A stretch of DNA of 64,000 nt from an uncultured cyanobacterium (GCA_963710605.1 CAVQBA010000004.1:544001-608000); one strand, 5' to 3'. Counted from the first letter of the stretch, positions 4,753 through 60,256 are shown. The notes: generated by a model not told the origin, from the sequence alone. Made by a program: numbers and translations.

Positions 4753-6048
4753 TTAACGATCACGATAAGCATAACAGACGGCATAATATTCAGAAGAAAG
4801 ATACTGACAAGCATATTGCTGTAGTTTTTCAGCCGATAAATTATTAACAATCTCAGGGTATTTTAAAGCTAAATTAGCAGATTCTAAAATGTGATAATAA
4901 CCATATAAAGAAGCGAGTTGTTCTGGTGTTTCTGTCGAAAAGATATAATCATGACATAATGATTTTTGGCAAGCACTTAGCTCACTTGCACTCACAGGTT
5001 GTTGTCGTAATTGTTGAATATGATTTCTAATTTTGGTTTCTACTTCTTCTAAATTATCAATACATGAATAAGCGGTGATAGTAAACAAACTTGAATATTT
5101 TTGTAAAGAAAAATCGCAACCAATACTCATTACTATTTGCTCTTCTTCTCTTAACTCTCTTACTAAACGAGAACTTCTACCACTTGCTAAGATTAAAGAT
5201 AACATATCAAGTGCGATCGCACCTTCTAAATCTTCAATTCCTGAAGTCATCCAACCCATCACGATTCTTGATTGCTCTAAACGGGGTAAAAACAACTTTT
5301 GCCGACGAGTACTAACTATTGGTGGTTCGCTATCAAAACGATTAACTGCTATCGATTCGGTTACAGGAGTTGGAAAATTTTGAAAGTTTGTTTCGACTAA
5401 AGAAACCGCCTCTTCTTGGCTGATATTACCGACTAAAACTACATTAAGATTATGAGGTTGATAATGAGTTTGATGAAACGTACGCATTTGTTCAGGAGTA
5501 TGACTCATCAAAAAAGGTTTTTCACCTAATACAGAACGTCGGTAAGGATGATGTTGATATATACTGTGAAGTAAAGATTGAAATATAATCCAATCAGGAT
5601 CATCGATCGTTGAACTAAGTTCTTCTAAAACGACATCTCGCTCAATATAAAAGTCTCGATCGGGTATTTGAGGCTGAAGAATAATCTCAGATAAATAAGG
5701 TAAAATTTCGGCTAAATAATCACTAGCGGTACTGAGAAAAAAATGAGTGTAATCGTAACTCGTCGCCGCATTAGCAAAACCGCCTTTACTCTCTACAAGA
5801 TAGTCAAACTCACCGGGTAAAATATTTTTTGTCCCTTTAAAGATCATATGCTCTAAAAAATGAGACATTCCTGATAAGGATTCTGATTCGCTTGTTACCC
5901 CTGCATTTACCCAGACATCGGCTACAACCACCGCACTAGAAAATATTTGCTGGTGTACTAACGTTACTCCGTTATCCAAACTAATCAAATTTAAATCGGA
6001 AATTAAAGTGTTATCAGAGTTGTTTTGAAGATCCTTGACTAGAGCCAT
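4753..6048 (-). CDS. M16 family (pitrilysin/processing) zinc peptidase
   Basis: Inverted zinc motif HFLEH followed by MIFKGT; NAATSYDYT; SSRLVRELRE. Confidence 0.93.
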   Translation of the reverse strand: MALVKDLQNNSDNTLISDLNLISLDNGVTLVHQQIFSSAVVVADVWVNAGVTSESESLSGMSHFLEHMIFKGTKNILPGEFDYLVESKGGFANAATSYDYTHFFLSTASDYLAEILPYLSEIILQPQIPDRDFYIERDVVLEELSSTIDDPDWIIFQSLLHSIYQHHPYRRSVLGEKPFLMSHTPEQMRTFHQTHYQPHNLNVVLVGNISQEEAVSLVETNFQNFPTPVTESIAVNRFDSEPPIVSTRRQKLFLPRLEQSRIVMGWMTSGIEDLEGAIALDMLSLILASGRSSRLVRELREEEQIVMSIGCDFSLQKYSSLFTITAYSCIDNLEEVETKIRNHIQQLRQQPVSASELSACQKSLCHDYIFSTETPEQLASLYGYYHILESANLALKYPEIVNNLSAEKLQQYACQYLSSEYYAVCYAYRDR

Positions 6049-6168
6049 CGAGATACATTTATTTACCTTTTCTTAATCTTACCTCTAAGCCAGGTAATAA
6101 ATGTTAACTAGATTACATTTTCCGATCACAAAATTATTTTTTTTAAATGTTTGAGTTATCATGTGTGG

Positions 6169-6663
6169 TTATTCATCAGTAACTTTGGCTATATTACCTG
6201 CTTTTACCCAACCTTCTTGTTCACTACCCGGAATCCGAATTTTTTGCCAATCTCCATCATTACTAGTACTTAAGATTATAATTTTACGATCGAAACCTAC
6301 ACCACCGATTCTCTCGGCTTCTTTACTTGGGCCATCTCTTAGACTTAAACCAGTTGACCATGTTACTCTAGCAAAATAAGCTCCGTTAGGAAGTTTTTCT
6401 TCAGGTTCAGGTTTTACTGCCGTTTCTTCAGGTTGTTTTGTTGTTTCTGTCTTTGTCTTTGTGTTTGTCTGTTCGGCTGTGGTTTCTACTTTTTCTTCTT
6501 TTGGTTTTTCTTCTTTTGGTTTTTCTTCAGAAAAAACTTGTTTTTCAGGATTAGTAGCTGTTTGGTTGAGGAAAAAATATGCTCCTCCTGCTATCCCGGC
6601 GGTAAAGAAAATAAGTCCGAAGAAAAAACCAATCACAAATTGAAACAGGCCTGATATATTCAT
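6169..6663 (-). CDS. Membrane-anchored SH3b domain protein
   Basis: N-terminal TM helix, charged linker, C-terminal GLSLRDGPS...WQKIR...GWVK SH3b signature. Confidence 0.85.
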   Translation of the reverse strand: MNISGLFQFVIGFFFGLIFFTAGIAGGAYFFLNQTATNPEKQVFSEEKPKEEKPKEEKVETTAEQTNTKTKTETTKQPEETAVKPEPEEKLPNGAYFARVTWSTGLSLRDGPSKEAERIGGVGFDRKIIILSTSNDGDWQKIRIPGSEQEGWVKAGNIAKVTDE

Positions 6664-9342: not shown

Positions 9343-10134
9343 TTAAACGTATCTAGTCAAATTAACACGATAACGCTCTTTTTTAGTTAATTGTACTTCG
9401 CCTATTTCTAATCTACCTTTACCACGAAAAGAAATTAAATCTCCACTTTTGACATTACGACTAGGTTGAGTAACATCTTTCCAATTAATACGTACATCCC
9501 CATTACTAACCGCATCAGCCATTTTACTACGAGACATACCAAAACCGAAAGAAGCAACTGCATCTAAACGTAAAGAAGCCTCTACTGTCGTCATTTCTTT
9601 TTTCTTAGGAGGGCGTATTTTTAAATCAGTCAATTCAATCCGACGAGTTTTAACTGTAACTGAGCGTACTTGTACTAAAGAAGCCTCTAAAAAGTCAACC
9701 ATTTCTTCAGTTACAATGACTTGAGCACCTCTTTCACCTAAGACAATAATATCACCTACTTTTTCTCTGACGATACCTGTACCCAAAATTGAGCCAAGAA
9801 AATCTCGATGAGTAGCAGTATCAAATAAAAAATTACCCGCAATATCTAAAGCAACTAAGCCAATTTGAGTATTATCTGCTGGTATTTCTTCTCGATGCAC
9901 ACCTATTCTTTGTCTTTCTGCTTGAGGATAACCACCCCAAGGAATAATCTTAATGTCTGTTAATGGTGTAAATATTTGATTAACTTCAGCTAATACTGGA
10001 GGGGAAAGAAAATCAGTAACTACTAATTCCCATATTTTTAAGGCTTTCTCTGCTTTATCTATAACTTTGGCTATCTCTTCAACGTTTTCTACTTTTGCCA
10101 GTAATTCTTCTCTAGGTAACATAATTTGCGTCAA
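9343..10134 (-). CDS. Photosystem II S4-domain RNA-binding protein (YlmH/Sll1252 family)
   Basis: TDFLSPP, GGYPQAERQR, HRDFLG, SLRLDAVAS..F.MSR, RGKGRL. Confidence 0.93.
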   Translation of the reverse strand: MTQIMLPREELLAKVENVEEIAKVIDKAEKALKIWELVVTDFLSPPVLAEVNQIFTPLTDIKIIPWGGYPQAERQRIGVHREEIPADNTQIGLVALDIAGNFLFDTATHRDFLGSILGTGIVREKVGDIIVLGERGAQVIVTEEMVDFLEASLVQVRSVTVKTRRIELTDLKIRPPKKKEMTTVEASLRLDAVASFGFGMSRSKMADAVSNGDVRINWKDVTQPSRNVKSGDLISFRGKGRLEIGEVQLTKKERYRVNLTRYV

Positions 10135-52070: not shown

Positions 52071-52113
52071 GTATCGTTTGATACAGTTATTTTGAAAAGA
52101 TTTTTGTTAATTT
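52071..52113 (+). promoter_or_regulatory. NtcA-activated promoter of the guanidine operon
   Basis: GTA-TCGTTTGA-TAC (52071-52084), then 23 nt, then extended -10 TG-T-TAATTT (52108-52113), just before the riboswitch. Confidence 0.8.
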
Positions 52114-52122
52114 GAGTCTAAA

Positions 52123-52256
52123 GTTTCTAGGGTTCCGACATATTTGCTATTAATTAGATAAATAAGTGACTGGTCCAAGAGAAACAAGCTACTAACTCAG
52201 GTTAAAAAATCAAGAAAATAATGGTAGCTACACGGAGGGAAAAAAGCCCGGGAGAG
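52123..52256 (+). ncRNA. Guanidine-I (ykkC-yxkD) riboswitch aptamer
   Basis: Conserved blocks TTTCTAGGGTTCCG, CTGGTCCAAGAGAAAC, ACACGGAGGGA-AAAAGCCCGGGAG; upstream of a guanidine hydrolase. Confidence 0.93.
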
Positions 52257-52301
52257 TAGGTGCAACGAATGGTGCATCGAGACGTTACTCTTCTGGGTTT
52301 T
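52243..52301 (+). terminator. Riboswitch expression-platform terminator
   Basis: AAAGCCCGGGAGAGTA (aptamer 3' end) pairs with TACTCTTCTGGGTTTT at 52286-52301. Confidence 0.7.
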
Positions 52302-52350
52302 GTCATTGATGTACCAGCAAATAATCAACAATTTTTTTGGTAATAAATTT

Positions 52351-53514
52351 ATGAGTAATCAACCCAACGATCGAAGCGAAGCTAACGAAGCATTAGAAAA
52401 AGAAACTCACCTTCCCCTCACAGGATGGCAACAAGAAGTAGATCAAGGTTTGGACTATGGATTAGAAGCCGCCGATAGTATCAAAGATCGGACTATCTCC
52501 ACTTTTTCTCGTGGTGAATTACCTCACTATGCAGGGATTAATACTTTTCTCAAAGCACCTTATATAGAAGATGTAAAGAAAGTAGGTGAATATGATGTAG
52601 CGATCGTTGGTGTACCCCACGATTCTGGTACTACCTACCGTCCTGGGACTCGTTTTGGTCCTCAAGGGATTCGCAAAATTAGTGCTTTATATACACCCTA
52701 TAACTTTGAATTTGGAGTAGATTTAAGAGAACAAATTACTCTATGTGATGTAGGAGACATCTTTACAATTCCTGCTAATAACGAAAAATCTTTCGATCAA
52801 ATTTCTAAAGGTATATCGCATATTTTCAAGTCTGGTGCTTTACCAATTATTTTAGGAGGAGATCATTCGATCGGTTTTCCCACAGTTAGAGGGATTTGTC
52901 GTCATTTAGGAGATAAAAAAATTGGCATCATTCATTTCGATCGTCATGTAGATACCCAAGAAACTGATTTAGACGAAAGAATGCACACTTGTCCTTGGTT
53001 TCATGCCACAAATATGGCAAATGCACCAGCGGAAAACCTCGTTCAACTAGGTATTGGTGGTTGGCAAGTACCTCGCCCAGGTGTTAAAGTGTGTCGAGAA
53101 AGAGCGACTAATATCCTTACCGTAACCGATATTACCGAAATGGGTTTGGATGCCGCCGCTGATTTTGCGATCGCTAAAGCCACTGATGGTACAGATTGTG
53201 TTTGGATTAGTTTTGATATAGATTGTATCGATGCGGGTTTTGTACCAGGTACGGGTTGGCCAGAGCCAGGTGGTTTAATGCCTCGTGAAGCTCTTTATCT
53301 CTTGAAAAAAATTATTCAAAATACTACTGTTGCGGGTATTGAAGTAGTTGAAGTTTCTCCTCCTTACGATGTCAGCGATATGACAGCATTAATGGCAACT
53401 CGTGTTATTTGTGATGCGATGGCTCATTTAGTGATTTCTGGGCAACTACCTCGTACTGAAAAACCCGACTATATTCACGAGGAAGAACAAGTAGTTGACG
53501 AACCTTGGAGTTAA
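52351..53514 (+). CDS. gdmH: Guanidine hydrolase (arginase/agmatinase fold, Ni-dependent, Sll1077-like)
   Basis: GELPHYAGINTF, TYRPGTRFGP, GGDHSIG, HFDRHVD, WFH, SFDIDCID, WPEPGG; context of guanidine riboswitch plus hypA/hypB; ATG at 52351. Confidence 0.9.
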   Translation: MSNQPNDRSEANEALEKETHLPLTGWQQEVDQGLDYGLEAADSIKDRTISTFSRGELPHYAGINTFLKAPYIEDVKKVGEYDVAIVGVPHDSGTTYRPGTRFGPQGIRKISALYTPYNFEFGVDLREQITLCDVGDIFTIPANNEKSFDQISKGISHIFKSGALPIILGGDHSIGFPTVRGICRHLGDKKIGIIHFDRHVDTQETDLDERMHTCPWFHATNMANAPAENLVQLGIGGWQVPRPGVKVCRERATNILTVTDITEMGLDAAADFAIAKATDGTDCVWISFDIDCIDAGFVPGTGWPEPGGLMPREALYLLKKIIQNTTVAGIEVVEVSPPYDVSDMTALMATRVICDAMAHLVISGQLPRTEKPDYIHEEEQVVDEPWS

Positions 53515-53598
53515 AAAAGTTAACAGTTAAAAGTTAAGAGTTAAAAGTTATTGCTCTCTCAATGGGTAAAACAATGGTTATTAATTACTTATTATTAA

Positions 53599-53758
53599 TA
53601 TAGCAATTACTAGTATTATGACGTACATATCGATCCCCCTAAATCCCTAACCAACAAAAGCGAAGCATCCTTATTCCTCCCCCTTACGAAGGGGGATAAG
53701 AGGGGGATAGGGGACTTACAAATATAAACCGTACCTCATAAATGTGAGAAACGCTATA
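53599..53758. mobile_element. MITE-like element with TATAGC...TTATGANGTAC inverted ends, carrying CCCCC/GGGGG hairpins
   Basis: TATAGCAATTACTAGTATTATGACGTAC (53599-53626, +) and TATAGCGTTTCTCACATTTATGAGGTAC (53731-53758, -). Confidence 0.65.
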
Positions 53759-53823
53759 TCCTTAATTCTCCCCGAATAATTGCAAAGCAAGAATTCATCT
53801 CTATTCTCCATTCTCAATTAACT

Positions 53824-54426
53824 ATGTATTGTTTGTATGATTTTTTACCATCAGGAAATGGCTATAAAGTTAGATTACTTTTAAACCAATTGCAAATACC
53901 TTTTGAGCGAATTGAACTTAATATTTTACAAGGAGAAACGAGAACACCAGAATTTTTAGCTAAAAACTCTAACGGTAAAATACCTGTTTTAGAAATTGCT
54001 CCCGATCGATATTTAGCTGAATCTAATGCGATTCTTTATTATCTAAGTCAAAATACTACTTATTTTCCTCAAGATAAATGGCATCAAGCAAAGGTAATGC
54101 AATGGTTATTTTTTGAACAATATAGTCACGAGCCTTATATTGCTACTTCTAGGTATTGGTTGAGTATCTTAAAACAACCAGAAAAATATCAATCTCAATT
54201 ACAAGCAAAACAAGCAGGAGGTTATCAGGCTTTGGAAGTGATGGAAAAACATCTGCAAATAAATACTTTTTTTGTTAACGAACAATATTCGATCGCCGAT
54301 ATTGCTTTATATGCTTATACTCACGTTGCTGAAGAAGGTGGTTTTAATTTACAAGAGTTTGGTGCGATTCGATCATGGTTTCAACGGATAGAAAGTCAAC
54401 CTAACTACATTCGTATTAATTATTGA
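53824..54426 (+). CDS. Glutathione S-transferase family protein
   Basis: SGNGYKVRL, GKIPVL, ESNAIL.YL, QWLFFEQ..HEP, SIADIALYAYTH. Confidence 0.93.
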   Translation: MYCLYDFLPSGNGYKVRLLLNQLQIPFERIELNILQGETRTPEFLAKNSNGKIPVLEIAPDRYLAESNAILYYLSQNTTYFPQDKWHQAKVMQWLFFEQYSHEPYIATSRYWLSILKQPEKYQSQLQAKQAGGYQALEVMEKHLQINTFFVNEQYSIADIALYAYTHVAEEGGFNLQEFGAIRSWFQRIESQPNYIRINY

Positions 54427-54609
54427 AATAGTACAAAAAAATTGTCTATTGACTGGTTTAAGGCTTTGAAAAAACAACTAATAGTTAAATTTTAGTACAC
54501 GAGTTTTGAAGAAAGTATTAGTTTCAGTGAACAACGAATAATGAACAGCTAACACCTAAAACAAATACACCTGTTACTCATTACTCATTACTTATTACTC
54601 ATTTATATT

Positions 54610-54963
54610 ATGCACGAAACAGATATGACCAAGGCTTTAATTGTGACGATTAAAGATTGGTATGAGTCGCAATCAACTAAATACAATATCGATAAAGTTC
54701 ATTTAATAGTAGGTGAATTTACTTGTGTCGAACCTGCTAGTTTAGAGTTTACTTTCGATGTTCAAACTCGCAATACTTTTTTAGAAGGAGCAAAATTAGT
54801 TATTAAAGATATACCTTTAGTTGCTTTTTGTCATCGTTGTAATCAAGAGTATAAACCTGAGGTTGGTTTGCAATATTCTTGTCCTGATTGTAATGCACCG
54901 ATGGAAGATATTGTCTCTGGTAGGGAATTAATAATCGATCGTCTCGAATATTCTCATCGCTGA
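54610..54963 (+). CDS. hypA: Nickel metallochaperone HypA (GhaA-like)
   Basis: MHE N-terminus, CHRC and CPDC zinc motifs, GREL. Confidence 0.93.
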   Translation: MHETDMTKALIVTIKDWYESQSTKYNIDKVHLIVGEFTCVEPASLEFTFDVQTRNTFLEGAKLVIKDIPLVAFCHRCNQEYKPEVGLQYSCPDCNAPMEDIVSGRELIIDRLEYSHR

Positions 54964-55053
54964 AAAAACTACTTGTTGATTGTGTAGTACTTACAAAGCC
55001 TTTTAATTTCTCTTAATTATTCATTATTCATTATTCATTATTAATTATCAATC

Positions 55054-55686
55054 ATGCACCAAACATTCGATGCCGCTTTAGAAATTAATTTACTTCATGC
55101 CAATCAAGAGGGGGCGAATCATAATCGATCGCATTTTGACGAGTGGGGTATTACTTGTTTTAACTTAATGAGTAGCCCAGGGGCGGGTAAAACAGCTTTA
55201 CTGGAAAAAACTTTAGCTCAATTAAATCAAGACTTGAAAATGTTAGTCATTGAAGGAGATATGACCACCGAATTAGATGCCGAGCGATTACGTAATTATG
55301 ATATACCAGTGATTGCAATTAATACAGGTCGATCGTGTCATTTAGATTCACGTATGGTTGCAGGAGGTTTTTTGTTTGAGGCTTTCTTAGGTACTAGTTA
55401 TGTTGGTGGGGTAATGTTAATTTCAATTATTGTCCTAATCTATACCGCTAGTGGTGGTTTATTTGCAGTTGCTTATACCGATGCGATTCAAGTTAGTATT
55501 GCTGTTTTGGCTACTATTTTTCTTTTTGGTTTTATTCTATTTAATTACGGTATCACAATTCCTGAAGGGTTAGGATCTTTTGATTTAGGGCAGTTAGCCG
55601 ATCCAGCTCAAGGTGCGGCTATCAATTGGGCAACTCTACTAGCTTTGGGTTTAGGGGATATTGTAGCGATTGATTTTAATGACTAA
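55054..55686 (+). pseudogene. hypB: Chimeric ORF: N-terminal half of HypB (GhaB-like) fused to an internal fragment of a sodium:solute symporter
   Basis: [21 protein letters not shown] (HypB) switch at VAGG (55357-55368) to FLFE...[17 protein letters not shown] (SSS motif). HypB ENVGNL/NKxD motifs are absent; premature stop. Confidence 0.85.
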
Positions 55687-59482: not shown

Positions 59483-60256
59483 TTATCGTGGAGGTTTAAT
59501 ATATTTTTTCACACCTAAATAATTAAGATAACGTTCGATCGCTTCGGTTGTATCTCCTTGAAAAACAATTTCACCTTGCTCTAACCAAATTGTACGATCG
59601 CAAAAATCTTCAACGTATTCTAAACTATGAGAAACAAATAGAATCGTACTACTTTTTTCCCACAACCGTTCGATTCTCGCTTTTGATTTATGAGTAAACC
59701 TCGCATCACCTACAGCCAATACCTCATCTAAAATCAAAATATCAGGTTCTGTATCCGTAGCTACAGCGAAACCCAAACGAGCCTTCATCCCTGAAGATAG
59801 AGACTTAACTGGCATATCCGCCGAGTCATTTAATTCAGCAAAATCTAAAATTTCATTAGTTCGAGTTAACATTTCCTTACGAGCATAACCGAGCAAAACA
59901 CCATAGAGAAGAATATTATCTCGTACAGACAACTCCATATTAAAACCCGCTCCTAACTCGATTAAGGGAGCGATATTACCTCGAACTCTCACACTACCAG
60001 TAGTCGGGTCTAATATACCACCAATTACCTTTAGCAAAGTAGATTTACCCGCACCATTTGAACCAATAATGCCAACTTTTTCACCCGAATTAACGACTAA
60101 ATTAAGATTTTTTAAAACTTGTTTTTTAATAGGTTGAGTATATCTTCCTTGTATCAAAGAAAAAAGTGTTTTTTTAAGATCGTAAGAAAACTCTTCTTGA
60201 GTTCTACGCCAAAGAGAAACATTATCTAGTCTAATTGCTTCGGGGGTCATTGTCAT
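59483..60256 (-). CDS. wzt: Polysaccharide ABC exporter, ATP-binding subunit
   Basis: GSNGAGKST, LIELGAGF, LSSGMKARLGFA, LDEVLAVGD, VSH. Confidence 0.9.
   Translation of the reverse strand: MTMTPEAIRLDNVSLWRRTQEEFSYDLKKTLFSLIQGRYTQPIKKQVLKNLNLVVNSGEKVGIIGSNGAGKSTLLKVIGGILDPTTGSVRVRGNIAPLIELGAGFNMELSVRDNILLYGVLLGYARKEMLTRTNEILDFAELNDSADMPVKSLSSGMKARLGFAVATDTEPDILILDEVLAVGDARFTHKSKARIERLWEKSSTILFVSHSLEYVEDFCDRTIWLEQGEIVFQGDTTEAIERYLNYLGVKKYIKPPR

Follow-up and report, generated by a model that had tools for sequence, protein, structure and literature searches.

Guanidine has been recognized only recently as a nitrogen source of cyanobacteria. The closest described system is the locus of Synechocystis sp. 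PCC 6803, in which an NtcA promoter and a Guanidine-I riboswitch precede gdmH (sll1077), ghaA, ghaB and gimABC (PMC12704784). The present analysis concerns a related operon located at positions 52,071 to 55,686 of a stretch of 64,000 nucleotides from an uncultured cyanobacterium (CAVQBA010000004.1:544001-608000), referred to as the window in its full length. This operon appears to be a degenerating version of a guanidine-assimilation operon that is conserved in cyanobacteria, in which a deletion fused hypB to the gene of a sodium:solute symporter (SSS), and the intact members of this symporter clade would be Na+-coupled importers of guanidinium. We assign to this reading a probability of about 0.7.

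Two kinds of guanidine importer are on record: GimABC, which has been characterized (PMC12704784), and a permease of the amino acid/polyamine/organocation (APC) superfamily, which has been proposed (PMC11410670; review PMC12186494). GimABC, which is ATP-driven, is the sole importer shown by experiment, and according to its authors there must be further routes of uptake (PMC12704784). Comammox Nitrospira harbor a Guanidine-I riboswitch together with the APC-superfamily permease and a guanidinase (PMC11410670). They resemble the system considered here in having an ATP-independent carrier under riboswitch control, proposed as an importer that feeds a nickel guanidinase, but their carrier belongs to a different family, is proposed to act by proton symport, is encoded 5' of the enzyme and has no nickel chaperone genes nearby. 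Another relevant protein is CHT1/SLC5A7, the high-affinity choline transporter (PDB 8j74; PMC11589582), a relative within the SSS family and an importer of a small organic cation. Keyword searches of the literature yielded no publication that connects the SSS family with guanidine; the gene-neighborhood tables of earlier studies could already list the symporter.

The window operon is similar to that of Synechocystis in its promoter type, its riboswitch class, the order gdmH-hypA-hypB and the presence of a transporter in terminal position. It differs by an SSS secondary transporter as last gene instead of GimABC, by the insertion of a glutathione S-transferase (GST) gene, and by the destruction of both hypB and the transporter gene. 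Its features, counted from the first letter of the window, are the following (ORF, open reading frame; aa, amino acids).

52071..52084, + strand: NtcA-type box GTA-N8-TAC (GTATCGTTTGATAC), predicted by sequence match
52108..52113, + strand: -10-like hexamer TAATTT (TAN3T), 23 nt past the NtcA box, a consensus match only
52116..52256, + strand: Guanidine-I (ykkC) riboswitch aptamer, RF00442
52243..52303, + strand: predicted terminator hairpin (expression platform), from folding; 5' arm and aptamer 3' end overlap, with a U run behind the hairpin
52351..53514, + strand: gdmH, predicted Ni-dependent guanidine hydrolase, apparently intact, 387 aa, likely start ATG 52351
53824..54426, + strand: glutathione S-transferase family gene, GST_N and GST_C domains
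54610..54963, + strand: hypA/ghaA, nickel metallochaperone, intact, 117 aa, PF01155 (E 1.2e-30)
55054..55686, + strand: chimeric ORF of 210 aa, a HypB half followed by an SSS piece
55054..55368, + strand: hypB/ghaB remnant, codons 1-105 of about 233, cobW model positions 5-65/180
55354..55368, + strand: deletion junction ATGGTTGCAGGAGGT, read as MVAGG, a microhomology that hypB and the SSS gene share
55369..55678, + strand: SSS remnant, residues about 143-245 of 495, PF00474 positions 101-170/406
55679..55686, + strand: foreign tail after the 3' breakpoint, Asn-Asp-stop
next gene after the chimeric ORF, opposite strand: Uma2-family gene

In an intact operon of this kind, transcription would start from an NtcA-activated promoter and the Guanidine-I riboswitch would permit read-through with guanidine bound. 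GdmH would turn guanidine into urea and ammonium, HypA/GhaA and HypB/GhaB would load nickel into GdmH, the GST would be optional, and an SSS-family transporter would be encoded by the last gene. In the window genome (G000), a deletion of about 0.9 kb between (M/L)VAGG repeats of 13-15 nt would have fused HypB 1-105 to the symporter from residue 139 or so, and a second break at 55678 would have removed the C-terminal half of the symporter, leaving gdmH, the GST gene and hypA intact. In some cyanobacteria the SSS importer may replace or supplement the ABC (ATP-binding cassette) importer GimABC.

All the elements that an earlier note had listed for this DNA could be recovered. Its NtcA box and -10 element are present as sequence matches, the two being spaced as in NtcA-type promoters, where GTA-N8-TAC lies about 22 nt before a TAN3T -10 box. 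The riboswitch with terminator that it described is supported by a match to RF00442 that spans 52116-52256 (E 1.1e-11; 75.7 bits, the gathering score being 63; model positions 1-107/107), single-copy in a search of the window genome, and by the folding of segment 52232-52312 at -30.1 kcal/mol (z -3.91; 0 of 200 shuffles equally stable). GCCCGGGAGAG is common to the 3' end of the aptamer and the 5' arm of the terminator, this arm being the last aptamer helix, and a UUUU run follows the hairpin. Such an overlap corresponds to the usual layout of a guanidine ON switch, from which a response to the ligand is predicted. A simple terminator scan, whose pattern allows only loops of 3-8 nt, missed this hairpin. 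The guanidine hydrolase, GST and hypA genes also lie where the earlier note had put them, according to Pfam, TIGR00100 and PDB matches, and its statement that gdmH and the nickel chaperones are followed by an ABC importer in Synechocystis agrees with PMC12704784. Its reading of a hypB running into an SSS fragment was right as to the order of the domains (CobW/HypB, then SSF) and the peptide it quoted, but both are broken remnants and not working genes.

The function of the symporter was addressed through its intact orthologues. One genome per species was scanned, yielding 176 SSS relatives, of which the best 80 loci, all at least 69% identical, were retained. They are labeled as cyanobacterial or 'uncultured bacterium', bar one metagenome-assembled genome (MAG) of Chloroflexaceae. 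The full-length symporter orthologues have 495-518 aa; strains with an intact copy include Acaryochloris marina MBIC11017, Xenococcus sp. PCC 7305 and Spirulina subsalsa CS-330. Searches with the window proteins and a covariance model, for which six aptamers confirmed by Rfam served as the basis, distributed the 80 loci into the following classes.

30/80: riboswitch-gdmH-(GST)-hypA-hypB-SSS on one strand
5/80: gdmH and SSS gene divergent, each with its own riboswitch
1/80: divergent, riboswitch at gdmH only
9/80: riboswitch 94-350 nt 5' of the SSS gene, in a locus without gdmH
1/80: riboswitch, hypB fragment, SSS gene
4/80: weak riboswitch-like matches only
3/80: gdmH, without riboswitch
18/80 (18/71 assessable): no guanidine link
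9/80: not assessable, contig ends too near

The importer role suggested by the earlier note hinged on whether full-length homologues are ever linked to gdmH or to a guanidine riboswitch, and they clearly are: a strong Guanidine-I riboswitch is present in 46 of the 71 assessable loci, and gdmH lies within 10 kb in 41/80. The riboswitch stands directly 5' of the SSS gene in 14/80 loci, and all 13 model matches that were rechecked (from 11 loci) pass the Rfam gathering score. Similarly, the ancestral order gdmH-hypA-hypB-SSS proposed there is found behind a riboswitch in the 30 loci of the first class, and an SSS-type operon is carried by the same-genus genome G001 and the same-family genome G014. 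Five wider loci from relatives harbor a Guanidine-I riboswitch on the symporter strand in 5/5 cases, with the order riboswitch-gdmH-(extra genes)-hypA-hypB-SSS. In the same-family genomes G004, G006 and G009, riboswitch-gdmH-hypA-hypB is followed by genes for an NMT1-type binding protein, a permease and an ATPase, which correspond to the GimABC type; in G004 a Na+/H+ exchanger gene lies 3' of gimABC on the same strand (L134 7607-9235).

An NtcA-type promoter is also a recurrent feature of these loci. GTA-N8-TAC occurs within 150 nt 5' of 44 of 55 aptamers, against 193 of 8621 (2.2%) background windows of 150 nt, in a set from which five weak or partial matches and loci L019 and L021 (duplicates of L034 and L026) were left out; the box lies 44-69 nt from the aptamer in 35 of these 44. 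This suggests that the dual control by NtcA and guanidine known from Synechocystis extends to the symporter operons, and is more in keeping with assimilation than with detoxification. In loci with gdmH and the symporter gene in divergent orientation (L075, L088, L061, L094 and L079), the minus-strand aptamers of gdmH are preceded by a sigma-70-like promoter (TTGACC...TATAnT) and not by an NtcA box.

Some further features of the symporter neighborhoods were observed. In six loci (L019 11122-11193, L021 10562-10637, L029 11963-12038, L062 3820-3895, L035 4475-4553 and L064 13579-13662), the strand opposite to the symporter gene contains a glutamine riboswitch (RF01739) 3' of this gene; in the first three the riboswitch is followed by an ORF of about 125 aa whose end is beside the SSS gene. 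It may indicate a nitrogen-regulation neighborhood. Paired small multidrug resistance (SMR) genes, divergent from the symporter gene and next to it, are present in L057 (8960-9941), L069 (9102-9941) and L098 (9032-9813). No riboswitch was found in these three loci, and a genome-wide search for gdmH gave no match for L069 or L098. Finally, the locus labeled as a Chloroflexaceae MAG (L087) harbors the whole riboswitch-gdmH-hypA-hypB-SSS operon with a gdmH only 70% identical, reflecting either a transfer beyond cyanobacteria or a binning error.

The relationship between the symporter and GimABC was examined in 400 evenly drawn cyanobacterial genomes, G000 excluded, with cut-offs of E 1e-60 for SSS and E 1e-100 for gdmH. 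The symporter is present in 8/400 genomes and gdmH in 53/400, and all eight SSS genomes carry gdmH (Fisher p 5.9e-8), a test that overstates the association because the eight genomes fall in six genera and kin are not independent. About 19 kb around each of the 53 gdmH genes was inspected: a riboswitch is present in 44/53 and GimABC-like genes lie beside gdmH/hypAB in 41/53. The symporter was found in 7 of the 12 gdmH genomes without adjacent GimABC, as opposed to 1 of the 41 with it (p 3.7e-5). These twelve comprise four loci with the symporter directly after hypB, three genomes with the symporter elsewhere (one of them on a split contig behind hypB), and five in which no symporter was found, one of these having its gdmH locus at a contig edge. 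The only GimABC genome with a symporter is G304, whose copy has its own riboswitch.

The intact symporter belongs to PF00474 and has the same overall length as PutP, PanF and ActP, but its scores against these named NCBIfam equivalogs are all far below the curated cut-offs (116 vs 515.5, 102.5 vs 328 and 31 vs 1099, respectively). Public names of the clade are generic, either 'sodium:solute symporter family protein' or 'Na+/proline symporter'. Its best solved relative is CHT1 (E 1.5e-26), whose functional residues (PMC11589582) were mapped through a profile alignment and scored for invariance in 121 orthologues. The Na2 site, made up of two carbonyl positions in transmembrane helix (TM) 1, one in TM8, and a Ser and a Ser/Thr of TM8, is matched at five of five positions (A53, V56, A322, S325 and T326 for CHT1 A60, V63, A343, S346 and S347), all invariant in 121/121 orthologues, and the Na3 site at two of three. 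None of the six positions of the CHT1 aromatic cage (W62, Y67, Y91, W141, W254 and W406) is aromatic here, small or aliphatic residues standing instead (S55, A60, L83, L133, A242 and L386), and the chloride loop VGGGY reads VDSNA in the clade. The replacement of both the cage and the loop argues that these proteins are not choline carriers. All 121 orthologues have Asp57 and Asp244, and at position 239 Asp occurs in 106 of them and Asn in the other 15; these three residues lie in the breaks of TM1 and TM6, which in CHT1 contain the chloride loop and the aromatic cage. We infer a sodium-coupled carrier that would offer carboxylates to a small cation, which fits guanidinium.

Taken with the known systems, these features make the symporter clade a well-supported candidate for guanidine import of a new type. 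On balance the evidence leans towards a more specific proposal, in which the clade would be a third kind of importer after GimABC and the proposed APC permease: Na+-coupled, under direct activation through Guanidine-I riboswitches and NtcA, with fixed carboxylates at Asp57/Asp239/Asp244 in place of the chloride and aromatic cage of CHT1, serving as the sole dedicated uptake system in about one eighth of the gdmH-carrying cyanobacteria, and in the course of being lost in the window genus by two deletions in two species.

Several observations weigh against the interpretation of the operon and its symporter given above. Neither gdmH nor a riboswitch is near the SSS gene in 18 of the 71 assessable loci, and among nine of these no-link genomes that were tested, gdmH lies elsewhere in four and was not found in five (all MAGs of unknown completeness). 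No other class of guanidine riboswitch reached the gathering score in nine no-link loci, and a motif search in them likewise returned none. Weak matches ahead of the SSS gene in L058, L062, L083 and L085 (22.6-38.8 bits) were discarded, Rfam giving nothing there at E 0.01. L047 and L065 have the symporter and GimABC within a single operon, and L082 has both within a single locus, so the symporter is not strictly an alternative to GimABC. The residue mapping derives from one profile alignment to CHT1, and invariance is weak evidence since identity among the 121 orthologues is 75% or more. The hypB-SSS junction is known from the assembly, no sequencing run being listed for the window genome. Finally, the importer role itself is deduced from sequence and gene context.

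The loci without guanidine context, the SMR pairs that adjoin the symporter gene in place of gdmH in three of them (L057, L069 and L098), and the five genomes of nine in which gdmH was not found leave room for a broader or different substrate. The clade might thus carry another solute, such as urea (the product of GdmH), a substituted guanidine like methylguanidine or agmatine, or small organic cations in general, guanidine being the inducer only. Besides the cases of a shared operon or locus with a GimABC-type importer, this would be in line with DUR3, a urea carrier of the SSS family; a mention of DUR3 is found in PMC12625717. We regard such a role as unlikely, because the Guanidine-I riboswitch directly precedes the SSS gene as first gene in the 14 loci mentioned above and additionally in L137, because the distribution of the symporter is complementary to that of GimABC in the even sample, and because a urea exporter driven by an NtcA promoter, and thus by nitrogen starvation, would be a waste of nitrogen.

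An export of guanidine for detoxification, as performed by Gdx/SMR proteins under the same riboswitch class, is far less probable. Many Guanidine-I riboswitches do control exporters (PMC12186494), and the SMR pairs beside the symporter gene might point in the same direction, but the characterized relatives that could be matched (CHT1 and SGLT, as well as PutP and PanF at the family level) are all uptake symporters. Moreover, the SSS gene is part of an assimilation operon behind an NtcA-type box and occupies the slot of the importer GimABC.

The proposed Na+-coupled importer, still encoded in the relatives, would have been lost from the window operon by deletion. The chimeric ORF shows a CobW/HypB domain at aa 38-97 (E 1.3e-10) followed by an SSF domain at aa 97-166 (E 2.4e-11). 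The HypB remnant keeps the P-loop and the CH motif, the remainder of the GTPase domain being gone, and no complete HypB G-domain (about 220-233 aa) is present in the window; the intact HypB of G014 has 233 aa, and an intact orthologue scores 308.2 bits against TIGR00073. The SSS remnant is devoid of the TM1 and TM8 sodium-site helices and of the C-terminal half, and therefore does not contain a full LeuT-fold core. It is 69-85% identical to full-length proteins of relatives, and is thus not a chance similarity. The 210-aa product, judged by what is missing from it, can be neither a GTPase nor a transporter, and the ORF is accordingly classed as a pseudogene.

The position of the junction has a simple explanation. 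SKMVAGG occurs once in hypB and GN[LM]VAGGYLFEAF once in the symporter gene, with near-identical bases, and these repeats are spaced by 900 nt (L019) and 932 nt (L021) in intact operons; a deletion between them would produce exactly the in-frame fusion observed. The second break, at 55678, is where similarity to G001 ends, the downstream DNA and genes being unrelated and no downstream synteny with G001 being found. The Uma2 region is single-copy, so that no repeat or mobile element accounts for this break. A search of the window genome revealed no other copy of hypB or of the SSS gene, with the missing halves nowhere else in the assembly, and no GimA homologue at E 1e-5 in this assembly rated 84.9% complete; within the window, the three Gim proteins match a single product, a distantly related ABC ATPase (59618-60127). 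The assembly consists of 7 contigs yet has this modest completeness, so gene loss or frame errors are possible, which bears on all absences from the genome itself. An opposite case of decay was observed in L033 (8766-11434), where a riboswitch and a C-terminal hypB fragment (9723-9869) precede an intact symporter gene, gdmH and hypA being gone from the locus.

Comparison with the same-genus genome G001 informs on the timing. Between the two genomes, the ratios of nonsynonymous to synonymous substitution rates (dN/dS) are 0.082 for the HypB remnant and 0.064 for the symporter remnant, compared with 0.048 for gdmH, 0.082 for hypA and 0.115 for the GST gene, at dS values of 0.8-1.4. The values of the remnants are as low as those of the intact gdmH and hypA, suggesting that the damage is recent and that purifying selection acted on both broken genes during most of the period after the two species separated. 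The operon of G001 (L017 4469-6003) has a different joint, out of frame, from HypB residue 143-145 or so to symporter residue 131 or so; its symporter frame is still open for 362 codons. Based on these alignments, the deletions in G000 and G001 are judged recent and independent. A shared ancestral deletion followed by a second step in G000 was rejected as main scenario, given dN/dS values of 0.06-0.08 in the remnants across a dS of about 1. Similarity to G001 starts at the NtcA box (52081) and stops in the symporter remnant (55678), with unrelated flanks on both sides, so the operon behaves like a cassette set in different neighborhoods.

That the chimera is an assembly artefact or a functional fusion protein, as its in-frame junction, seen in the assembly, and the low dN/dS of both halves could suggest, is scarcely credible, because a 15-nt repeat is too short for assembly collapse, a second and independent break with unrelated DNA beyond it lies at 55678, the lost halves are not found elsewhere in the assembly, half a P-loop domain with about three membrane helices has none of the TM1/TM8 sodium-site residues, and a low dN/dS is expected after a recent deletion.

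The three genes upstream of the chimera seem unaffected. The product of gdmH matches Pfam Arginase (E 2.8e-77) and, over residues 8-386, PDB 7esr/7oi1 (802.9 bits, E 5.1e-241), with an arginase fold. These structures are displayed under the name 'Probable agmatinase 2', and we take them to be Sll1077/GdmH. By this full-length similarity, the window gene is assigned as a nickel-dependent guanidine hydrolase. HypA scores 119.2 bits against TIGR00100 (cut-off 88.1), and its gene is the only hypA of the genome. A GST gene lies between gdmH and hypA in the window, in G001 (L017 3417-4022) and in 7/80 loci; an S-adenosylmethionine (SAM)-methyltransferase gene (5892-6659) also occurs between gdmH and hypA in L021.

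For the window organism, these losses leave an operon without its nickel GTPase and its transporter, so that it probably grows less well at low guanidine even though gdmH is intact. If the role proposed here for the intact symporter is true, it would explain how species with gdmH but without GimABC are supplied with guanidine, and would give a specific name to a clade labeled only 'sodium:solute' or 'Na+/proline symporter'. Guanidine-inducible expression systems would then also gain an uptake module consisting of one gene, and the SSS family would be credited with a wider range of substrates.

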